Source: a virus (lineage: Duplodnaviria; Heunggongvirae; Uroviricota; Caudoviricetes). Taken from it: a DNA stretch of 6,791 nucleotides. Location of the stretch: the IMG/VR virus record IMGVR_UViG_2703718769_000011, one strand, 5' to 3'. Each line of letters opens with the position of its first letter. Within the stretch, counting starts at the first letter, position 1. Below are positions 1 to 6,791 of this stretch, piece after piece. A program made the translations under genes and the position numbers. The notes under the pieces are model-generated. The model made no database searches. It saw only the letters and a program-made list of their open reading frames with translations, and had not been told where the DNA came from.

Positions 1-218
1 TGGTATGGATGACGGATGGCTGGCCGCTGTATGAATCACGCCTGAAGGGAAAGCTGCACGTTATCAGCAAGCGTTACACTCAGCGCATTGAGCGACATAA
101 TCTGAATCTGAGACAACATCTGGCAAGGCTGGGACGGAAGTCACTGTCGTTCTCAAAATCGGTGGAGCTGCATGACAAGGTCATCGGGCATTATCTGAAC
201 ATAAAGCACTATCAGTAA
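1..218 (+). CDS. insB: IS1 transposase InsB, C-terminal portion (5' end outside the window)
   Basis: The translation ...[70 protein letters not shown] followed by TAA at 216..218 matches the InsB C-terminus as I recall it. The frame is open from the window edge (codons at 3..5, 6..8), so the ATG at 9 in the ORF track is internal, not the true start. Confidence 0.85.
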
Positions 219-233
219 GTTGGAGTCACTACC
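1..233 (+). mobile_element. IS1 insertion sequence, right-hand portion (element continues upstream of the window); terminal inverted repeat about 211..233
   Basis: Positions 211..233 (atcagtaagttggagtcactacc) match the IS1 terminal inverted repeat as I recall it (ATCAATAAGTTGGAGTCATTACC) with two mismatches and the characteristic ...ACC end. The upstream sequence encodes the C-terminal part of InsB. The exact boundary at 233 is from recall of the IS1 terminus. Confidence 0.85.
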
Positions 234-1392
234 CACGCTCTACAGATGGTTCAGCTTCCACCAGGATTTCATTTTTTTGAGTATCGGATTCTGCCGTCTC
301 CACTGGAGCAGTTTGTGCTGCTGACTGCTGGAGAGCATTAGCAGAGCTCTGGTCTGTTTCTTCATGTTCAAACACGCCCTTTGTCGTCAGGTATTCGCTG
401 ATATATTTGTTCAGTGCAACGGGATCTTTGTGAATATCGATCGGACGTTCGCGAACAAGGCCAAAAATAGTCTGACGGTCATAGGCAAGTGCTTCGGGCT
501 GTTTGCGCATTGATGCTGAGATACGCTTCCAGTCTTCGCGATCCTTGTCGATAACCTCATTTGTCGCCCAGCGATGGATGGTACCGTCAATGTTTCCTGC
601 ATCCACATCACCGGGCCAGAGGGCGCAGGCCAGTTCATTGTCGAGTGTTTTCCATGTCTGTTTGTATTCGCGGCGAATGGCAACAGTGACAGCCCCGGTT
701 TTTTCAGCAGCGTTTTCAGTGTTCTGTTGGTTGACTCTGGCGCGGGCGAGATCAACAACAGACGTGTATTTTCCGGTTTCCTTGCGTTCACCTTCGCGAC
801 GTTTTTTCCAGATGCGCATCTCTGCCTGAATTTCAGGCCATTTAGCGCCAGGCTCACATTTATTCTTAACCCACCCGATGGCATGCAGTTTAAGTTCAGG
901 ATACATGGCGTTAACTTCTGGCATTTTCATCAACGCTTCAACGATATGTCCGCCGAATGTTGCCATGTCTTCCTGTAGTAATTCCTGTGCGCTAATCACC
1001 ATATCAACGGTGATGTTTTCGCATGTGTCGAATTTAACCAGGACTGCGTTCTGTACTTCAGGGGACAGCTTGTCAAAATTGACGTTCATCGGATCGGATT
1101 CGGGTTCGACCGGGACAAAGGACGCAGACTCCTCATCCCAGCGGTTTTCCTGCATATATTCGGTATCCCAGGAATCGAGGGCAGGGCGGGGTATGCCGGG
1201 TTTATCCTCGCAGACAATAAATTTATAAGCGCAGTCCTGAGCTGCCGGGAATTGCTCCAGAAATTGCCAGTGAAATTTTGCGCGTGCGCGACGCTCATCA
1301 CCGGCTTCAATGGCAGTGGCCACCGCAACAGCGCTATCTTCTTCTATGGCCTGCTCGTCAGGAATAGCAGCGCAAATAAAGATTTTATTCAT
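229..1392 (-). CDS. Hypothetical acidic protein, 387 aa as read; the 3' end is fused to IS1, so it is probably C-terminally truncated
   Basis: Long ORF with ATG at 1392..1390 preceded by GAGGT 9 nt upstream. No motif I can assign. The stop TAG (229..231) and two bases of the last codon lie inside the IS1 terminal repeat. Last gene of the minus-strand block after the DicB-like and YdfD-like genes. Confidence 0.6.
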   Translation of the reverse strand: MNKIFICAAIPDEQAIEEDSAVAVATAIEAGDERRARAKFHWQFLEQFPAAQDCAYKFIVCEDKPGIPRPALDSWDTEYMQENRWDEESASFVPVEPESDPMNVNFDKLSPEVQNAVLVKFDTCENITVDMVISAQELLQEDMATFGGHIVEALMKMPEVNAMYPELKLHAIGWVKNKCEPGAKWPEIQAEMRIWKKRREGERKETGKYTSVVDLARARVNQQNTENAAEKTGAVTVAIRREYKQTWKTLDNELACALWPGDVDAGNIDGTIHRWATNEVIDKDREDWKRISASMRKQPEALAYDRQTIFGLVRERPIDIHKDPVALNKYISEYLTTKGVFEHEETDQSSANALQQSAAQTAPVETAESDTQKNEILVEAEPSVERG

Positions 1393-1487
1393 TGTGTTTT
1401 AACCTCATTACAGATTTCAGGGTGAACGAATCCCTGCCATTGCTGGCATTTTTAATCCGTTGGTATGGCGTTAATATGGCTGGCGGG

Positions 1488-1676
1488 TTATCCAGCCGGT
1501 GTTTCGTTATTCAGGTACAGCGATACTTTTTTTACCGGGAGGCATTCACCGGGGATTTTTTGTTCGTCCCTTACCTGAATGCAGGATGACTTACTGTCAT
1601 AAATTCCGGTAATCACATTCTGCGGCTCACCCGTTATAAGAAAAACGGTCATCACCAGTGCAAATGCTGAAGTCAT
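1488..1676 (-). CDS. Small membrane protein, 62 aa, YdfD-like (Qin-prophage small lysis protein family) candidate
   Basis: Its ATG overlaps the stop of the upstream DicB-like gene in an ATGA (1673..1676), implying translational coupling. The N-terminus MTSAFALVMTVFLITG is a hydrophobic transmembrane or signal-like segment. Size and position immediately after the dicB-like gene match the dicB-ydfD arrangement; I cannot recall the YdfD sequence, so the assignment is by context and architecture. Confidence 0.5.
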   Translation of the reverse strand: MTSAFALVMTVFLITGEPQNVITGIYDSKSSCIQVRDEQKIPGECLPVKKVSLYLNNETPAG

Positions 1677-1861
1677 TGACGTTCTCCGAAAATACCAAGT
1701 TTAATAAGGGCAATTCGGGAAAGAATGGAATTATCATTGAGCAGATAAGGCTCATATTTCCGCATATTAATGGCATCCTCAGTAAACGCTTTATTACTGA
1801 GCAGAACACCAATATCAAAACAACCTTCAGACGTATTAACGTTTGGTAATAACGTTTCCAT
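1673..1861 (-). CDS. dicB: DicB-like cell division inhibitor (62 aa)
   Basis: The translation METLLPNVNTSEGCFDIGVLLSNKAFTEDAINMRKYEPYLLNDN... closely resembles my recollection of E. coli DicB (starting MKTLLPNVNTSEGCF..., 62 aa). SD GAGGA lies 7 nt upstream of the ATG. It sits downstream of a DicF-like RNA, as in the Qin dicB operon. Confidence 0.75.
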   Translation of the reverse strand: METLLPNVNTSEGCFDIGVLLSNKAFTEDAINMRKYEPYLLNDNSILSRIALIKLGIFGERQ

Positions 1862-2038
1862 TATCGCGTCCTCAACAATGAATTTTGTGATGCAGTGCCT
1901 GGTGCCTCCAGGTGACGTTAACCAGTTAACAATTAACGCCGGATTGTTAGTTGATGTCTGTTACGCAAGTAAAAGACCGCTTGTTTTAACTGTTCCGCGT
2001 GCGCATAGCCGCATTCACCGCATCACAAAATTCACTTT

Positions 2039-2077
2039 AAAAAGGGCGGATATCCATTTCCGCCGAATCACCAGAAA
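2039..2077 (-). ncRNA. dicF: DicF-like small RNA (shortened variant) ending in an intrinsic terminator
   Basis: The minus strand reads UUUCUGGUGAUUCGGCGGAAAUGGAUAUCCGCCCUUUUU. The 5' UUUCUGGUGA matches the DicF seed as I recall it, and the 3' end is a GGCGGA/UCCGCC hairpin followed by a U-run. The following ...TTTTTAAAGTGAATTTTGTGATG also resembles sequence downstream of K-12 dicF. The dicB-like ATG lies about 175 nt downstream. Boundaries are approximate. Confidence 0.5.
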
Positions 2078-2440
2078 AGTGATAACAGAGGTTGTTGTGG
2101 CTGGGGTGTCACTTAAGCGTATGGTCAACCTGACAACCCGGTGTCCTCAACGGGGGAAGGAATAACCCCGCCATACTTACCGCCGCGCCATTTCGCGGAT
2201 TACCACAACCGGAAGCGCACGATCGAATTAAATTTAACGACGACCTATACAGAGAGACGAACTTCGCCGTGCGCTTTCGTGTTGTGTGCCTGCTTTAACC
2301 ACGTCAGGCGAGGTGGACTCGTTATTCCCCAACAACAAGGATCTTGTTAATCTGGATATCCACAACAAGAATAAGAGTATTCAGAGTGATCGCTGAATTA
2401 ACGGCAGCAATGGCGGCTATTCCTTAATTACCAGGCATCA

Positions 2441-2593
2441 TTAGTCAGAGTTTCTTGCTAACCAGCGATGCGCGCCAGCTTCGGTTTTAAACGTTTTACT
2501 TTTGGTATACGTCATCGCGGTAAACGTGCCGTCCTGGTTGGGGAAGACGCCGCACACCAGAGATTCATTGTTGCCAAGATTGAGCATATCCAT
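2441..2593 (-). CDS. Small prophage protein, 50 aa (below the ORF-track size cutoff); possibly YdfA/YdaF-like, first gene of the leftward operon
   Basis: ATG at 2593..2591 is preceded by TGAGGT with a 4-nt spacer. Translation: MDMLNLGNNESLVCGVFPNQDGTFTAMTYTKSKTFKTEAGAHRWLARNSD, stop TAA at 2441..2443. The family assignment is from context only (position relative to the dicF/dicB-like genes); I cannot recall a reference sequence. Confidence 0.5.
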   Translation of the reverse strand: MDMLNLGNNESLVCGVFPNQDGTFTAMTYTKSKTFKTEAGAHRWLARNSD

Positions 2594-2782
2594 GTTGACC
2601 TCATTTACCCTTAACGCCGGGTCGCGGAACTAAAAACCTGCTGCGCTGTTATACAAAGTGTTCCCGCCGTCATGTTCATACGCCTCGGGCTGGCTACTTA
2701 ACCCCTGACCACTGCCTGGTAACTCGAAGTATTGCCCTGCGTTCTGTGGGGCGGGGTGGGTTGATGAATATAATCTACAAGT

Positions 2783-2815
2783 AAAAACTGTTTGATGTCA
2801 ACAATAAATAACTGT
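2783..2815. promoter_or_regulatory. Candidate leftward operator/promoter (OL/PL-like)
   Basis: AAAAACTGTT-TGATGTC-AACAAT (2783..2805) resembles the 3818..3846 palindrome with the same 7-bp spacing, and a further AACTGTC lies at 2809..2815. On the minus strand a perfect TTGACA (-35, 2801..2796) is followed after 18 bp by TAGATT (-10, 2777..2772), pointing at the 50-aa gene. Confidence 0.35.
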
Positions 2816-2826
2816 CATTTTGGACG

Positions 2827-2851
2827 AAGAAAACTCCCTCATCAGTGGGAG
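2827..2851 (-). terminator. Possible weak intrinsic terminator after the toxin gene
   Basis: Minus strand CTCCC-ACTGATGA-GGGAG followed by TTTTCTTC, 15 nt after the toxin stop. The stem is only 5 bp. Confidence 0.3.
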
Positions 2852-2865
2852 CAAAAGCGGTGGGC

Positions 2866-3153
2866 TTAAAGATTAGCGGGGAATTGTCGACGGGCGTGAA
2901 CCACGTTTACAATTTCAATACCTGAAGTTGTCACCCGGTACAAAATTATGTAATTGGGGTGAGCCACAATCTCGCGCAAACCTGGCACTCTGTCGCTTGG
3001 CGGATATAAATACGGATGTTCGGATAACGGCAGGACGCAAGCTCTTAAGCGTTGCCATAAGCGTTCTGCCGCATCTATGTCGAAACGGGCAATATAACTA
3101 GTTATATCATCCAGATCGGTATCTGCGCTTTCAAGCCATAACACGGGTAACAT
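2866..3153 (-). CDS. parE: ParE/RelE-family type II toxin (ParE2-like), 95 aa
   Basis: The translation MLPVLWLESADTDLDDITSYIARFDIDAAERLWQRL...EIVAHPNYIILYRVTTSGIEIVNVVHARRQ has the size and pattern of RelE/ParE plasmid-stabilisation toxins. Its ATG directly follows the antitoxin stop (TAA-ATG at 3156..3151). Confidence 0.8.
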   Translation of the reverse strand: MLPVLWLESADTDLDDITSYIARFDIDAAERLWQRLRACVLPLSEHPYLYPPSDRVPGLREIVAHPNYIILYRVTTSGIEIVNVVHARRQFPANL

Positions 3154-3345
3154 TTACTGCTCTCTCCGTTCCTTGCGAATTTTGGCAAAGCGTTCTGCCA
3201 TTCTGCGCTCAACTTCATCATGTGGAATAGCAGGACGTGGATCAGCAAGGCTTGCGGCTACTTTTGCGCGTAACCATTCGTTATAACTGTTTTCTTGCTC
3301 AACGGTTTCAAATTCAGAAACCATTGGTGAAAGGGCTGTATTCAT
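3154..3345 (-). CDS. Small antitoxin, 63 aa, PaaA2-like (ParE-associated antitoxin)
   Basis: ATG at 3345..3343 is preceded by a strong SD AAGAGGAGG with a 6-nt spacer. The ORF-track start at 3408 has no SD and would overlap the repressor stop. Translation: MNTALSPMVSEFETVEQENSYNEWLRAKVAASLADPRPAIPHDEVERRMAERFAKIRKERREQ, charged and probably disordered. It sits immediately upstream of the ParE-like toxin; the size matches the 63-aa PaaA2 of the described paaR2-paaA2-parE2 system as I recall it. Confidence 0.65.
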   Translation of the reverse strand: MNTALSPMVSEFETVEQENSYNEWLRAKVAASLADPRPAIPHDEVERRMAERFAKIRKERREQ

Positions 3346-3374
3346 GACATACCTCCTCTTACAGGTGGTAGAGA

Positions 3375-3776
3375 TTACGCTCGGTGCCCCTTTTGGGCTG
3401 CGATCCACCGAGCAACAGTTTCTTCCATTGACTTTTTCTTATTTTTTATTTCCTGAAGCATTTTTTCTTGGTCTTCATCGGGAAATGCACTAAAAGCTTG
3501 GAGCAATTCACGTTGGCGAGGGCCAATTTTCATCGTGTCAGGAGTAAAAATTTGCTCTCCCTCTTCTGGAGGTAATAAAAACCAATGTAGTGGATGCCCT
3601 GTAACCTCGACCAACTTATCTAAGCTGGAGGCTTTAGGTGTGGCTTTTCCACTGACCCATTGCTGAACAGTTTGCTGTGTCACACCGACTCTACGAGCAA
3701 GTTCAGCTTGGCTCCATCCTGTTTCTTTGAGGAGCCTGCTAATTCTGTACATAGATACTTCTAGGGCCTTCATCAT
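3375..3776 (-). CDS. HTH (XRE/cI-type) transcriptional repressor, DicA/PaaR2-like; candidate prophage immunity repressor
   Basis: N-terminal helix-turn-helix SQAELARRVGVTQQTVQQWVSG. The C-terminal part (IGPRQRELLQAFSAFPDEDQEKMLQEI) resembles the DicA C-terminal region as I recall it. Divergent from the Cro-like gene across an operator-bearing intergenic region. The start could be ATG 3776 (no SD, possibly leaderless) or the internal ATG at 3752. Confidence 0.8.
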   Translation of the reverse strand: MMKALEVSMYRISRLLKETGWSQAELARRVGVTQQTVQQWVSGKATPKASSLDKLVEVTGHPLHWFLLPPEEGEQIFTPDTMKIGPRQRELLQAFSAFPDEDQEKMLQEIKNKKKSMEETVARWIAAQKGHRA

Positions 3777-3884
3777 TATTCGATTTTACAGGTAAATACT
3801 GTTAAAAGCACCACAATAAAAAACTGTTGATCATGAACAGTTTTTTATTGTAGCCTTTATCTATGAACTTCAGAGGAGGGCAAC
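3777..3884. promoter_or_regulatory. Divergent operator/promoter region (OR-like) between the repressor and Cro-like genes
   Basis: Perfect 11-bp inverted repeat AAAAAACTGTT-GATCATG-AACAGTTTTTT at 3818..3846, plus another ACTGTT at 3798..3803. SD GAGGAGGG at 3874..3880 serves the Cro-like ATG at 3885. A minus-strand TAAAAT at 3788..3783 sits just upstream of the repressor ATG, suggesting a leaderless transcript. Confidence 0.6.
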
Positions 3885-4145
3885 ATGCTCAATAGCACCC
3901 GTGAAAAAATTAAGCAGAAATACACACAGGCTGAAATAGGACGCTATATGGGAGTAACCCAACAAACTGTTTGGCAATGGTTTAGCTTGGGTATTCCTCC
4001 CAAACAGGTAATCCCTTTATGCCAACTAATGCAGTGGGGGGTTACTCCTCACGAACTCCGACCTGATATTTATCCTAACCCAACAGACGGCTTGCCTGCT
4101 GAGTTTCAGACTAGCACACAGCCAGCGACGGGAGTTGATTCATGA
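3885..4145 (+). CDS. Cro-like HTH protein (YdaS-like), 86 aa
   Basis: HTH QAEIGRYMGVTQQTVWQWFSLG, strong SD, first gene of the rightward operon. Its stop overlaps the next start in an ATGA (4142..4145). Confidence 0.7.
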   Translation: MLNSTREKIKQKYTQAEIGRYMGVTQQTVWQWFSLGIPPKQVIPLCQLMQWGVTPHELRPDIYPNPTDGLPAEFQTSTQPATGVDS

Positions 4146-4567
4146 AAATCAAGCATGAGCACATCCGCATGGCGATGAATGCCTGGGCATATCCTGACGG
4201 TGAGAAAGTTCCCGCAGCTGAAATAGCCCGGACTTATTTCGAACTGGGGATGACGTTCCCGGAACTGTACGACGACACTCATCCTGAGGCCCTGGCTCGT
4301 AATACCCAGAAAATTTTCCGTTGGCTGGATAAAGACACCCATGATGCTGTTGAAAAAATTCAGGCTCTGTTACCGGCGATCGAAAAGGCGATGCCGCCTT
4401 TGCTGGTGGCCCGTATGCGCAGTCACAGTTCTGAGTACTACCGGGAGATTGTCGAACGGCGGGATCGGCTGGTGAAGGATGTCGACGATTTTGTTGCGTC
4501 AGCGGTCGTTTTGTATGACCAGATAAATCGCGGCGGCCCGGCAGGGAATGCTGTGGTGATGCACTAA
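4142..4567 (+). CDS. ydaT: YdaT-like protein (CII-like regulator family; historically annotated toxin YdaT), 141 aa
   Basis: The translation begins MKIKHEHI..., which matches my recollection of Rac-prophage YdaT. It is translationally coupled to the Cro-like gene and has SD GGGAG 7 nt upstream. Confidence 0.6.
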   Translation: MKIKHEHIRMAMNAWAYPDGEKVPAAEIARTYFELGMTFPELYDDTHPEALARNTQKIFRWLDKDTHDAVEKIQALLPAIEKAMPPLLVARMRSHSSEYYREIVERRDRLVKDVDDFVASAVVLYDQINRGGPAGNAVVMH

Positions 4568-4589
4568 AAGCACGGTGTTCGGGGGTTTT

Positions 4590-5558
4590 ATGAGCAGCAA
4601 GCTTCATGGTCTTGTCTGGGAAGGATGCGCCTTCACTGGCATGATCTTATCAAGGGTGGCAGTAATGGCCCGTCTTGCAGATTACAGCAATGACGAGGGG
4701 GTGTCATGGCCTGCTATGGAAACGATCCGGCGTCAGATCGGTGCCAGAAGTGAATCCACCGTGAAATCTGCGATTGCAGAACTGGCGAAAGAGGGCTGGC
4801 TGACGAAGGAAGAGCGTAAGATCGGTGGGCGTAACGTAAGCAATATCTATCGGCTTAATGTGGAAAAACTCGAAGCAGCGGCAGCGGCGGCGCGTGAGGC
4901 ATATAAACCGAAAAGAAAAATTAGCCCGGCAAAAAATGACCCGTTAACAGTTGACCCGTCAAATATTGACCCCTCAACGGTTGACCCGTCAAATTCTGAG
5001 GGGTCAACCATTGATAAAAAACAGCCGATTAGGGGGGCGATGATTGACCCCGATCCGTCAGTATTAAAACCTGATCCGTCAGATAAAAGATCTTCTTGTC
5101 CGGACGTTTCACTTCCGGACGAAAAAAAATCATCTCCGGTTGAACGCTTTCTGGATAAACACCCTGATGCGCATACGTGGAATGTGCCGAAGCGACAGTG
5201 GGGAACCCGTGATGATATTACCTGTGCGCAGTGGATCTGGGGGCGTGTTGTTGCGCTGTATGAACACGCAGCCAGTGATGATGGTGAGGTTTCTCGCCCC
5301 AGAGAGCCAAACTGGACGACATGGGCTAACGATGTCCGGATGATGCGCATGCTGGATGGCCGCAGTCACCGGCAGATTTGTGAAATGTTCAGTCGGGTGC
5401 AGCGGGATCCGTTCTGGGTAAAAAATATCATGAGTCCGGCAAAACTGCGCGAAAAATGGGATGAACTGGTCATTCGTCTTGGGCGTGGGCCTGCGCAGAG
5501 TTGCGTGAATCATATTTCTGAACCGGACACTGAAATTCCACCGGGTTTCAGGGGGTAA
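4590..5558 (+). CDS. Phage replication initiation protein (O-like): N-terminal winged-HTH domain, iteron-encoded linker, DnaT-like C-terminal tail
   Basis: The N-terminus (from the ATG at 4590, GGGGG just upstream; the ORF-track start at 4575 is a GTG) has an HTH-like region ...VSWPAMETIRRQIGARSESTVKSAIAELAKEGWL. The C-terminus ...SEPDTEIPPGFRG matches the E. coli DnaT C-terminus (...SEPDSQIPPGFRG) as I recall it. Direct repeats lie inside the coding sequence. Immediately upstream of the DnaC-like gene. Confidence 0.75.
   Translation: MSSKLHGLVWEGCAFTGMILSRVAVMARLADYSNDEGVSWPAMETIRRQIGARSESTVKSAIAELAKEGWLTKEERKIGGRNVSNIYRLNVEKLEAAAAAAREAYKPKRKISPAKNDPLTVDPSNIDPSTVDPSNSEGSTIDKKQPIRGAMIDPDPSVLKPDPSDKRSSCPDVSLPDEKKSSPVERFLDKHPDAHTWNVPKRQWGTRDDITCAQWIWGRVVALYEHAASDDGEVSRPREPNWTTWANDVRMMRMLDGRSHRQICEMFSRVQRDPFWVKNIMSPAKLREKWDELVIRLGRGPAQSCVNHISEPDTEIPPGFRG
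4936..5007. repeat. Candidate replication-origin iterons inside the O-like gene
   Basis: Four copies of TTGACCC(G/C)TCAA or its inverted form start at 4951, 4966, 4981 and 4996 (15-bp period), with an imperfect fifth at about 4937..4948. An A-rich stretch follows (5013..5022) and a more distant related copy lies at about 5044..5060. Confidence 0.6.
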
Positions 5559-5564
5559 CTGACC

Positions 5565-6317
5565 ATGAAAGATATCGCGACAGTTGCAGTTGGTGTTCTG
5601 GAACGCATCCGCAGACTGGCTCCTGAGCACGTTCCCGTGCCGTACAGTACGACGGAGGAGTGGCGCGAGTGGCAACTTGCCGAAGGCCGGAAATACTGCG
5701 AGGAGATTAACCGCCGGAATCGTCAGTTGCGGGTGGAAAAAATCCTGAACCGTTCGGGCATCCAGCCGCTGCACCGCAAATGTTCGTTCGCGAATTACCA
5801 GGTGCGGAACGACGGGCAGAAACATGCGCTGAGCCAGGCTAAATCCATCGCTGAGGAAATGATGACCGGTTATACAAACTTCGTGTTCAGCGGGAATCCG
5901 GGAACCGGAAAAAATCATCTGGCGGCGGCTGTGGGTAATCGTCTGCTGAAGGCTGGTAAATCCGTGATAGTGGTCACCGTGGCGGATGTGATGAGCGCGT
6001 TACATGCCAGCTATGACGACGGGCTGTCAGGGGAAAAATTTTTGCGTGAACTGTGCGAAGTGGACCTCCTGGTTCTTGACGAAATTGGCATCCAGCGTGA
6101 GACGAAAAACGAGCAGGTGGTACTGCACCAGATTGTTGACCGCCGGACGGCATCACTGTGCAGTGTCGGGATGCTGACAAACCTGAATCATGCCGCAATG
6201 AGCACGCTTCTTGGTGAGAGGATTATGGACAGGATGACCATGAACGGTGGTCGCTGGGTGAGTTTTAACTGGGAAAGCTGGCGTCCCAATGTCAGCCATC
6301 TGAGAGTATTGAAGTAA
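5565..6317 (+). CDS. DnaC-family helicase loader (phage-encoded DnaC paralog), 250 aa
   Basis: Walker [14 protein letters not shown] and Walker [10 protein letters not shown]. There is extended similarity to E. coli DnaC as I recall it (NRSGI.PLH..CSF.NY, ...GMLTN.N...LLGER.MDRM, ...FNW.S). SD GGGGG lies 8 nt upstream. Confidence 0.85.
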
Positions 6318-6339
6318 TTTTTATCCGGAGGAAATTTTA

Positions 6340-6791
6340 ATGGAAACCGTTTTTGACGCACTGAAAGCACTGAAAAGAGCCTCTTCACAGGTAGTGGCGG
6401 CCCGCCTTGGAATCAGCCGTGAAGATGCGGTCAACGAACTGTGGAAACTGAAGCGCCGTGGTGAAGCGGATAACAAGGGGTCGATGTGGTGGCTGATTCA
6501 GGCTGGTGAAAGTGAACCTGTGTCACAGGTACCGAAAGTGACAGCGCAAATGCTGACTGAGGCGATTGAACAACATGGCCCACAAACGGCGGATGAACTG
6601 GCACTGATGTTCGGAATTACCTCCCGCCGGGCGAATTCATCGCTGGCGATGGCAATCAGCAAAGGGCGTCTGATTCGCGTGAATCAGGGCGGTAAATTTC
6701 GTTACTGCATACCGGGCGCTGATTTACCGGCAGAGCCGGAAGCTGCATCCGTAGCGGAAACGGATGGTAAAGCCTTTCCTCAGCCAGCAGG
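6340..6791 (+). CDS. Hypothetical protein, 3'-truncated by the window end (150 codons visible, not in the ORF track)
   Basis: ATG at 6340 is preceded by SD GGAGGA (6327..6332). The frame stays open to the window end. Translation starts [43 protein letters not shown]... and has a second similar segment ([32 protein letters not shown]). Confidence 0.55.

Follow-up and report, generated by a model that had tools for sequence, protein, structure and literature searches.

The question raised by a short stretch of caudoviral DNA (6,791 nucleotides from IMG/VR record IMGVR_UViG_2703718769_000011, hereafter called the window) is why a phage replication initiator should end like the host protein DnaT, and whether this ending couples the initiator to the DnaC-type helicase loader encoded downstream. 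A first-pass annotation, made from the sequence alone, had taken the two genes for a counterpart of the host dnaT-dnaC pair, in which a DnaT-like part is fused to an iteron-binding domain and its tail serves as contact surface for DnaC-mediated loading of DnaB. For the host itself, the recruitment of DnaB/DnaC by DnaT is stated to be unknown in the 2026 cryo-EM study of the preprimosome (PMC13377028), and likewise in PMC4132743.

Results

Genomic context of the module

The locus belongs to a Rac-like lambdoid prophage of E. coli and constitutes its replication module, which is ordinary and very common: among 5426 complete genomes of this species, 2379 contain a match. The gene order of the window corresponds to dicA-dicC-ydaT-ydaU-ydaV of Rac (features in Table 1), and no RNA family was found in the window with Rfam. 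Lambdoid prophage modules with DnaC-type loaders were described in PMC2669165 and are of a kind already known; what the survey presented below adds is one pattern of tails and loaders.

Table 1. Features of the replication module and its surroundings in the window.
Feature	Position	Strand	Basis
Immunity and early-right region driving the module (early context)	3375..4567		Pfam/NCBIfam matches
DicA/CI-like repressor	3375-3776	-	Pfam/NCBIfam
YdaS Cro-like gene	3885-4145		Pfam/NCBIfam
YdaT gene	4142-4567		Pfam/NCBIfam
Lambda-O-family replication initiator gene, 322 aa	4590..5558	+	ORF and RefSeq CDS, phrog_391, HTH_36, lambda O match
N-terminal winged-helix DNA-binding domain, aa 1-104	4590..4901	+	HTH_36, AF2 fold
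Candidate origin iterons, TTGACCC(G/C)TCAA x5, last copy inverted	4936..5007		Repeat search, sequence, pattern scan
Lambda-O-type helical C-terminal domain, aa 183-297	5136..5480	+	Lambda O homology; not DnaT-like
DnaT-type C-terminal tail, aa 302-322, AQSCVNHISEPDTEIPPGFRG, predicted disordered	5493..5555	+	BLASTP, hhalign, AF2, PHROG, co-variation
Shine-Dalgarno AGGGGG for the DnaC paralog, in the last two tail codons (Arg-Gly)	5550..5555	+	Sequence ...TTCAGGGGGTAACTGACCATG
DnaC-type AAA+ helicase loader gene, YdaV-like paralog, 250 aa	5565..6317	+	DnaC/YdaV identity, NF009043, IstB_IS21, phrog_50
Walker A GNPGTGKN, aa 110-117	5892-5915	+	Invariant columns in DnaC alignment
Walker B DLLVLDEIG, aa 167-175	6063-6089	+	Invariant columns in DnaC alignment

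The initiator and its candidate origin

The initiator gene starts with an ATG codon that has GGGGG ahead of it, and the same gene call is made by RefSeq in a genome that is 99.985% identical. Its product matches phrog_391 ('replication initiation O-like'; PHROG profiles) over the full length with an E value of 3e-105. The N-terminus matches Pfam HTH_36 (E 2.7e-6; 27.5 bits versus a cutoff of 25) and takes a winged-helix fold in the AF2 model, and residues 1-104 are presumably the reader of the iterons. Moreover, residues 192-295 share 42% identity with the O protein of Lambdavirus lambda (tblastn, E 4e-17), and a block ...SPAKLR(E/D)KW... is common to the C-terminal domains of both proteins. 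Judged by homology, the gene encodes a lambda-O-family initiator that is of DnaT type only at its extreme tail. Some pipelines already name such initiators 'primosomal protein I'.

The AF2 architecture of the initiator includes a linker and a tail, both predicted to be disordered. The linker (residues 109-179) is repetitive and DPS-rich, and it is encoded by the iterons, whose location inside the initiator gene was confirmed by repeat search and pattern scan: all seven matches of the iteron pattern in the window (7/7) fall inside the array. The iterons follow a period of exactly 15 bp (direct-repeat family D1, inverted repeats I1-I3), with a sixth, partial copy at approximately 5043, and A/T-rich runs are encountered 3' of them at 5008-5030 and 5119-5133. 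In the lambda ori, likewise, the iterons lie in the initiator gene and encode a disordered linker. The array and its A/T-rich DNA probably function as an origin, and the initiator would bind to its own iterons.

The DnaC-type helicase loader

The next gene indeed encodes a close DnaC paralog with intact Walker motifs, as had been proposed. Its product is 48% identical to K-12 DnaC across 235 aa (E 2e-85) and 85% identical to Rac YdaV, its N-terminal region can be aligned with that of DnaC, the AAA+ core motifs, including both Walker motifs, are invariant in comparison with DnaC, and the arginine region GER(I/V)MDRM is present. The protein belongs to phrog_50 ('DnaC-like helicase loader'; PHROG) and has Pfam matches to IstB_IS21 (E 1.4e-19) and the Bac_DnaA ATPase (E 9e-9). 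In NCBIfam it scores 480 bits with the prophage subfamily NF009043 (cutoff 389) and 302 bits with the DnaC equivalog NF005931, which is under the cutoff of 357, and it is therefore a DnaC paralog and not DnaC itself. The loader is proposed to load host DnaB. The assignments to phrog_391 and phrog_50 agree with the earlier reading of the two genes as a replication module.

A DnaT-type tail on a lambda-O-type body

The C-terminus of the initiator, VNHISEPDTEIPPGFRG, has 13/17 identities to K-12 DnaT (BLASTP, pairwise E 4e-7), which confirms the claim that the O-like protein ends close to the DnaT tail. The longer ending reads ...CVNHISEPDTEIPPGFRG in the initiator and ...VNTVSEPDSQIPPGFRG in K-12 DnaT; the latter was translated from NC_000913.3, and the DnaT tail given in the first-pass annotation was correct. 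Profile-profile comparison (hhalign) of only the tails of initiator and DnaT yielded 98% probability (E 6e-14, 21 columns), the tail on its own matched phrog_18526 and phrog_3729 in PHROG, and a phmmer search of the PDB matched the DnaT chains 2ru8, 6aep, and 9zbt only via residues 299-322 (E 0.02-0.08).

With the tails removed, the hhalign comparison of initiator and DnaT gave an E value of 0.89, and neither profile nor fold similarity to DnaT was found for residues 183-300. Pfam DnaT (PF17948, the three-helix ssDNA-binding domain, DnaT 88-153) had no match in the initiator, BLASTP revealed no N-terminal similarity, and the Phd/YefM-like N-terminal oligomerisation domain and the acidic PriB-binding linker of DnaT are absent. 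The similarity to DnaT is confined to approximately 21 residues because residues ~183-300 constitute the lambda O C-terminal domain. The proposed fusion of a DnaT-like part to the initiator thus holds for the last ~21 residues and fails as a domain, and the alignment of residues ~200..322 with DnaT, suggested as a check, displayed similarity in the tail only, which is half of what the annotation itself had listed as speaking against it.

Acidic in net charge and rich in proline, the tail has pLDDT values below 50 over residues 300-315 in the full-length AF2 model (10-residue block means of 39-51 across the tail) and over residues 301-313 in the model of the C-terminal domain. Its core reads P-D-x-x-I-P-x-G-F-R-G-COOH, within the wider pattern ..[DN]-x-[IV]-S-x-P-D-x-x-I-P-x-G-F-R-G-COOH. 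Among 61 unique host DnaT tails the positions D-18, D-10, P-6, G-4, F-3, R-2, and G-1 are invariant. The initiator has six of these seven, from D-10 to G-1 (D, P, G, F, R, G), with Cys at D-18, and was counted as a match to the DnaT tail pattern D-x7-D-x3-P-x-G-F-R-G.

The last two tail codons are doubly constrained, being also the ribosome-binding site of the loader gene; the same AGGGGG occurs in Rac ydaU-ydaV, and host dnaT has GAGG in these codons. Moreover, DNA homology between the window and Rac begins within the tail codons and continues into the loader gene, so that the mosaic junction falls inside the tail. Both observations favour retention of the tail for nucleotide reasons, i.e., as a ribosome-binding site for translational coupling or as a recombination joint hitch-hiking with a captured dnaC, and without protein function in the phage. 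This explanation appears extremely improbable in view of the seven invariant amino-acid positions, the use of all four synonymous codons for P-6 and for G-4 in the 61 unique host dnaT tails, and the retention of the motif in 80 unique initiators without downstream dnaC, including those of viable phages. Retention solely as dnaC ribosome-binding site was rejected as a full explanation on basis of dnaT codon usage and the loader-less initiators. The codon comparison shows selection on the tail acting at the protein level.

Tail type co-varies with loader type

The GFRG-type tail was found on at least four scaffolds, i.e., DnaT, the lambda-O type, the YdaU type, and the DnaD-like family 3 (phrog_3729). 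Its recurrence is not a matter of chance, as it terminates host DnaT in 68 genome loci and precedes a DnaC-like gene in 80 of the 81 assessable viral loci, Gifsy-2 and POCJ13 being among the phages in which a tail-bearing initiator is combined with a DnaC-like gene. Within the lambda-O family the unique pairs, which lack phylogenetic independence (those linked to DnaC represent three body families, mostly from Escherichia and relatives), comprised 58 GFRG tails with a DnaC paralog, 80 without any phage loader, including that of the viable phage mEp460, and none beside a lambda-P-type loader, which was accompanied by a non-GFRG tail in 8 pairs. Tails of classes C and D (lambda-O-like, tryptophan-rich; NTxWIxG or WNxxEGW) adjoin Phage_lambda_P in Salmonella, Morganella, and Edwardsiella; the number of loci behind these P-linked classes is small, since scans of viral contigs that started from class C initiators (P0090, P0115) for the most part brought up the E. 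coli class A loci once more. A homolog search with the C-terminal 138 aa was of little use, as it returned almost only E. coli gene fragments. Of 120 tail-bearing ORFs from metagenomes, 79 were followed by a DnaC-like gene, 32 by some other gene, and none by lambda-P.

Twelve unique prophage variants without a loader, from 27 loci, have the same tail, and phage mEp460 encodes a tail-bearing initiator, but neither a DnaC nor a P homolog was found anywhere in its complete genome. For initiators of this type the DnaC paralog is dispensable in nature.

At the level of sequence, these comparisons show that tail type follows loader type inside one homologous body family. The co-variation supports, but does not prove, a role of the tail as docking peptide for DnaC-family loaders; the part of the first-pass annotation that assigns to the tail the contact surface of DnaC-mediated loading thereby gains strong comparative support, and a physical contact between tail and DnaC itself is suggested.

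Alternatively, the binding partner of the tail could be DnaB, either by itself or through a surface formed jointly with DnaC. DnaB and a DnaC-type loader are both common to all GFRG contexts, i.e., to host DnaT and to phages with and without a loader gene of DnaC type, the comparative data fit either partner, and the pattern is equally compatible with a surface present on DnaB-DnaC only or on P-free DnaB. Binding to DnaB alone, however, offers little reason for a swap of tails whenever the loader is of lambda-P type in the same initiator family, nor does it agree with the inheritance of the tail-coding DNA as a single block with the DnaC-like gene, and a target other than the DnaC-family loader is considered unlikely.

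Truncation data for DnaT point in another direction. Removal of residues 154-179 lowered ssDNA affinity approximately two-fold and reduced cooperativity (PMC4132743); compared with the full-length protein, binding of dT30 by DnaT 84-153 was weaker by a factor of about two, and the Hill coefficient rose from 2.1 for DnaT 84-153 to 2.7 for DnaT 84-179 and 3.6 for the full-length protein (PMC4132743). In the light of these data the tail may act instead in DNA binding or oligomerisation, as an ssDNA-binding or self-association element for cooperative nucleoprotein filaments. For a peptide that is net acidic, proline-rich, predicted to be disordered, and attached to three unrelated C-terminal domains such a role is quite unlikely, and it leaves the exclusion of the tail from P-coupled initiators unexplained.

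Relation to known replication systems

The module resembles lambda O/P in having an initiator that is homologous in both domains and has the same architecture, with iterons in its gene and the loader gene directly downstream. It differs from lambda in its loader, which is a DnaC-type AAA+ protein and not lambda P, and in the last ~21 residues of the initiator, which are of DnaT type (..PDTEIPPGFRG), whereas the lambda O tail reads ..LDLTNTDWIYGVDL. A literature search for the motif string or for 'DnaT-like' phage proteins yielded nothing besides the paper on DopC (Brezellec et al. 2017, PMC5509034). The DopC-DopE pair of Cellvibrionales and Oceanospirillales is domesticated and has no iterons (PMC5509034). 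Compared by description, DopC combines, as here, an O-like HTH_36 N-terminus with a DnaT C-terminal element and is encoded beside a helicase-loader gene, but this element is a DnaT_C domain (HHpred to 2ru8), the loader is lambda-P-like, and the bacteria lack DnaC (PMC5509034).

Rac (ydaU-ydaV), Gifsy-2, Stx phage POCJ13, and the Sakai prophages Sp4, Sp10, and Sp12 have the same kind of module, in which a YdaV/DnaC-like loader comes after the initiator. The two genes of the window could not be upheld as counterpart of dnaT-dnaC; by homology the true counterpart is Rac ydaU-ydaV, as the C-terminal domain and the tail of YdaU are both DnaT-like. DnaT 1-156 matched the YdaU family phrog_2509 with an E value of 6e-22 (PHROG), in agreement with BLASTP. 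An hhalign comparison without tails, according to which the YdaU C-terminal domain is unlike DnaT (E 0.64), was overruled by PHROG and BLASTP and treated as a false negative because the alignments were shallow. YdaU has an unrelated N-terminal body, whereas the window initiator has a lambda-O-type body and only the tail is common to both.

In host dnaT-dnaC the same tail is directly followed by a DnaC-family gene, the Shine-Dalgarno of which is located in the last tail codons, and host DnaC shares its ATPase motifs with the window loader. However, the N-terminal domain, the acidic PriB-binding linker, and the PF17948 three-helix domain of DnaT are all missing from the initiator, and the two proteins differ in targeting, which is via PriA/PriB at abandoned forks for DnaT and via origin sequence for the initiator.

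The tail is loosely similar to acidic-I-P-x-x-F C-terminal peptides, such as the SSB C-terminus, which is a point in favour of docking on PriA, PriB or SSB, by which phage initiators would be plugged into the restart machinery. Contacts of DnaT with PriA via the C-terminal domain and with PriB via the linker point the same way, but as reported they involve the three-helix domain and the acidic linker and not the extreme tail (PMC13377028). Nor does such docking account for the absence of the tail from P-type modules, and it is regarded as very unlikely.

Discussion

The locus is a Rac-like lambdoid replication module in which the tail of the initiator probably docks on a DnaC-family loader. 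The initiator would assemble on the iterons via its N-terminal winged helix and open the neighbouring A/T-rich DNA, after which docking of the tail on the loader would recruit the DnaB-loader complex. Where the phage has a paralog, as here, this would be the docking partner, and in relatives without a loader of their own host DnaC would take its place, in parallel to lambda O, the different tail of which couples to lambda P. C-terminal docking peptides such as the SSB tip are likewise short, conserved, disordered, and partner-recruiting, and sit on a variety of folded bodies; this analogy concerns the mode of action only, their sequence being unrelated to that of the tail.

A wider proposal, made tentatively and at somewhat less than even chances, is that the tail works as a docking peptide for loaders of the DnaC family and can be carried from one protein to another, being common to host DnaT and to scaffolds of phage initiators that are unrelated and at least four in number, that it is the missing link of the preprimosome, and that the host operon and the phage modules share an origin. 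Phages with their own DnaC paralog would couple origin to loader via the tail, and loader-less phages (mEp460, the class B lambda-O relatives, and SPN1S) would imitate DnaT by means of it and so take over DnaB-DnaC of the host. There, the tail would link the PriA-PriB-DnaT preprimosome to DnaB/DnaC. As a corollary, the dnaT-dnaC operon and phage modules of the ydaU-ydaV type would be of common origin, because the DnaT C-terminal domain is homologous to YdaU-type phage initiators. It counts against the tail that Ducos et al. (2026; PMC13377028) favour, as a speculation, the N-terminal domain of DnaT as recruiter of DnaB/DnaC.

As a conserved C-terminal peptide of short length, hitherto uncharacterised, the tail is a candidate for the link between DnaT and DnaB/DnaC. 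If the proposal is true, it would make the recruitment of helicase during replication restart accessible through a simple peptide and would explain how loader-less lambdoid phages initiate replication. Finally, the specificity between lambdoid initiators and their loaders would be encoded in exchangeable C-terminal tails.

Prophage of origin and replication module

Nucleotides 234-6791 of the window are 99.985% identical to a prophage of E. coli OkiPb01678 (NZ_AP042495.1), which is Rac-like lambdoid, adjoins ompW with its integration site, and carries genes for integrase, excisionase, a RecE-like exonuclease, dicB, a DicA/CI-like repressor, YdaS, and YdaT, as well as the window initiator and loader genes, DUF1627, RusA, a Q-like antiterminator, and lysis genes. 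Positions 1-233 have no match in this reference, and the ORF located there appears to break the exonuclease VIII gene. The toxin-antitoxin pair directly adjoins the prophage repressor gene, within the immunity region, and the YdaS-family gene (window 3885-4158), a frameshifted pseudogene according to RefSeq in a near-identical genome, is nevertheless intact in the window.

Features of the window
Feature	Position	Strand	Remarks
ORF	9-218		presumably resembles the C-terminal end of IS1 InsB transposase
RecE-like exonuclease VIII	229-1392	minus	N-terminal 387 codons; apparently interrupted by ORF 9-218
ParE-family toxin	2866-3153	minus	Pfam E 9e-17
PaaA2-type antitoxin	3154-3408	minus	E 2e-20
YdaS-family gene	3885-4145		intact 86-codon ORF; YdaS Pfam match; overlaps ydaT start
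Initiator gene	4590-5558	+	322 aa; ATG start preceded by GGGGG
Iteron array	4936-5007		TTGACCC(G/C)TCAA, five copies, exact 15-bp period; fifth copy inverted
Loader gene	5565-6317	+	250 aa; DnaC-type

Of 5426 complete E. coli genomes, 2379 contain a match to a 1728-bp initiator-loader query, and in 1208 of these the match spans 80% of the query or more. RefSeq product names for the pair are no more specific than 'helix-turn-helix domain-containing protein' (initiator) and 'ATP-binding protein' (loader). Lambdoid prophages that encode a DnaC-type loader are a well-documented group (PMC2669165), Rac ydaU-ydaV being the K-12 example, and the window locus is a common representative of this already known kind of module.

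The initiator as a whole matches phrog_391 ('replication initiation O-like', E 3e-105), and its residues 192-302 are 42% identical to the C-terminal domain of lambda O (E 4e-17), including a common ...SPAKLR(E/D)KW... block directly after which the two proteins diverge. AF2 modelling predicted, both with confidence, a winged helix (aa 1-104) and a helical C-terminal domain (aa 183-297; pLDDT 83.9 as a separate model), with a disordered linker between them (aa 109-179) and a tail that is likewise disordered. As in lambda, it is the coding sequence of the disordered linker, in the window a DPS-rich repeat peptide, that contains the iteron array. The array, which contains all matches to this pattern in the whole window and is followed by one further partial copy and A/T-rich runs, presumably constitutes the origin bound by the initiator. 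The loader is indeed the close DnaC paralog proposed by the first-pass annotation, aligning with DnaC at 48% identity (235 residues, E 2e-85) and with Rac YdaV at 85% identity, and its Walker A and B motifs and GER(I/V)MDRM region are intact; its score exceeds the cutoff for NF009043, a prophage subfamily, but does not reach the one set for the DnaC equivalog model.

Similarity to DnaT is confined to the tail

The initiator ends in ...CVNHISEPDTEIPPGFRG, and translation of MG1655 dnaT and dnaC placed ...VNTVSEPDSQIPPGFRG at the K-12 DnaT C-terminus, as stated in the first-pass annotation, with 13/17 identities by BLASTP. This observation is thereby confirmed, and the interpretation attached to it is partly supported. 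A fused DnaT-like domain had been proposed, but the similarity is limited to the last ~21 residues (299/306-322 in BLASTP and phmmer searches against PDB), the remainder of the C-terminal domain being that of lambda O. The Pfam DnaT domain (PF17948, DnaT 88-153; 75 bits for DnaT itself) had no match in the initiator even at E<=10. Profile-profile comparison of the initiator-family C-terminal domain with 66 DnaT orthologs gave E 0.89 with both tails removed, whereas the tails alone aligned over 21 columns at 98% probability (E 6e-14).

Tail-less DnaT (1-156) matched phrog_1408, phrog_2509, phrog_1032, and other 'replication initiation protein' phage families (E 1e-21 to 1e-27) over DnaT ~72-154, the ssDNA-binding C-terminal domain. 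Because phrog_2509 is the family of YdaU, and YdaU aligns by BLASTP with DnaT 92-178, the real phage counterpart of dnaT-dnaC is ydaU-ydaV rather than the window pair, whose initiator has the tail alone in common with DnaT. This suggests shared ancestry of dnaT-dnaC (K-12 locus L002, dnaT at 2479-3018) and ydaU-ydaV-type phage modules (Rac locus L003, ydaU at 1228-2016).

The tail is a portable unit

The motif ..PD..IPPGFRG ends the ORF upstream of the YdaV-like loader in 80 of 81 assessable viral loci, on three body families unconnected by BLAST: the lambda-O type, the YdaU type, and a 356-aa type with a C-terminal domain in phrog_3729/1701 ('DnaD-like'). DNA homology between the window and Rac ydaU-ydaV starts inside the tail codons and extends through the loader gene; tail and loader therefore move as a unit across the mosaic junction. 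Host DnaT carries the same tail, immediately before dnaC, in 68 Enterobacterales genome loci.

The last two tail codons (Arg-Gly) also supply the Shine-Dalgarno sequence for the loader gene that follows, AGGGGG in the prophage (window 5550-5567) and GAGG (GAGGG) in host dnaT-dnaC (L002 ~2476-2500, minus), so that constraint on the tail is partly, not wholly, nucleotide-level; in host dnaT the Arg codon is almost exclusively CGA or AGA, and GGC is never used for the final Gly. Purely nucleotide-level constraints are a highly improbable cause of tail conservation, since seven tail positions never vary among 61 unique host DnaT sequences, and all four synonymous codons occur at P-6 and at G-4.

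Some homologs (P0104, P0125) combine the N-terminal part of the window initiator with a C-terminal end typical of the DnaD-like scaffold (..FGPDRNFENPWLLPVSGTNN..) and the same tail, an architecture that points to further domain shuffling among tail-bearing initiators. A 347-aa ORF on metagenome contig Ga0308159_1001491 (L496; match 1978-2013, minus) ends in ..PGEPDSEIPPGFRG; its lysine-/glutamate-rich body has no match among the four known scaffolds and may represent a fifth, and the ORF is followed by a gene that is not of the DnaC-like kind.

Tail and loader types co-vary

Among 118 retrieved homologs of the initiator body, four alternative tails begin after the common KLREKWDEL block.

Tail classes among initiator homologs
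Class	Tail	Next gene
A	DnaT-like	DnaC paralog; loader lacking in 27 loci (12 unique variants)
B	..VDYSQIPAGFRG or ..PENSGFR[ST]	no adjacent loader (E. coli, Klebsiella, Pantoea)
C	..WN[ST]xEGWxxVL	Phage_lambda_P
D	..LDFSNTNWIDGIE..	Phage_lambda_P

The class C and D pairs occur in Salmonella, Morganella, and Edwardsiella, and the class D tail resembles that of lambda O (..LDLTNTDWIYGVDL). When unique pairs were counted over all fetched loci, which are phylogenetically non-independent, DnaC-type loaders followed 58 GFRG-type and 0 other tails, lambda-P-type loaders followed 0 GFRG-type and 8 other, tryptophan-rich tails, and 80 GFRG-type tails were followed by neither loader; despite this non-independence, the pattern holds over three body families and several genera. 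An independent metagenome scan with the tail pattern yielded 120 ORFs, with bodies of DnaT (48), family 3 (the DnaD-like scaffold; 30), lambda-O type (21), YdaU type (13), or unknown/truncated (8), followed by a DnaC-like gene (79), another gene (32), or the contig end (9), and in no case by lambda P.

Isolated phages carry the tail with DnaC (Gifsy-2, POCJ13) or without a loader (mEp460, SPN1S, a Klebsiella phage), and no DnaC or P homolog was found in the whole mEp460 genome. Initiators ~85% identical to that of the window, with the same tail and without a DnaC paralog, are present in prophages (L311, 1786-3226, where a 140-aa protein of unassigned function follows) and in the complete viable phage mEp460 (L424, mEp460_ev081; 31980-33387), where LygF follows. 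Because such natural relatives exist, the DnaC paralog is an accessory, non-obligatory partner of window-type initiators. Serratia and Yersinia YdaU-family initiators (L415 2201-3535; L416 2201-3550) end in ..Y(K/R)ETGEQPY(V/T)GG instead of the GFRG tail and precede a 132-aa DUF3268 protein, with no DnaC paralog there, which may be another tail/partner pair.

The tail as a putative loader adaptor

These sequence patterns are best explained if lambdoid initiators carry a loader-specific adaptor at their extreme C-terminus, the GFRG tail serving DnaC-family loaders, either the phage paralog or host DnaC. The adaptor reading fits the classical view that lambda O owes the specificity of its interaction with P to its C-terminal part. 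The earlier proposal of the tail as contact surface agrees with it, the contact being one that we infer from the tail/loader pattern. It is unlikely that the tail instead targets DnaB or a composite of DnaB and DnaC, and binding of another primosome partner is distinctly less probable. DnaT truncations (PMC4132743) suggest that the tail acts in ssDNA binding or cooperativity, an explanation that ranks between these two and is rather doubtful.

Several tail-bearing phage initiators are already labelled 'primosomal protein I' by annotation pipelines, and some PHROGs families are named 'primosomal protein'. Moreover, the O-like HTH_36 protein DopC, whose partner is a P-like loader, has been reported to contain a DnaT C-terminal element (Brezellec et al. 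2017; PMC5509034). How DnaT recruits DnaB/DnaC is unknown according to a 2026 paper on the structure of the preprimosome, which puts forward the N-terminal domain (PMC13377028). Our literature search found no mention of the tail motif or of its link to loader type. The portable DnaT-type tail is the sole feature of wider interest at the window locus, and it offers a concrete and cheap experimental route to how DnaT and loaderless phages engage DnaB-DnaC.
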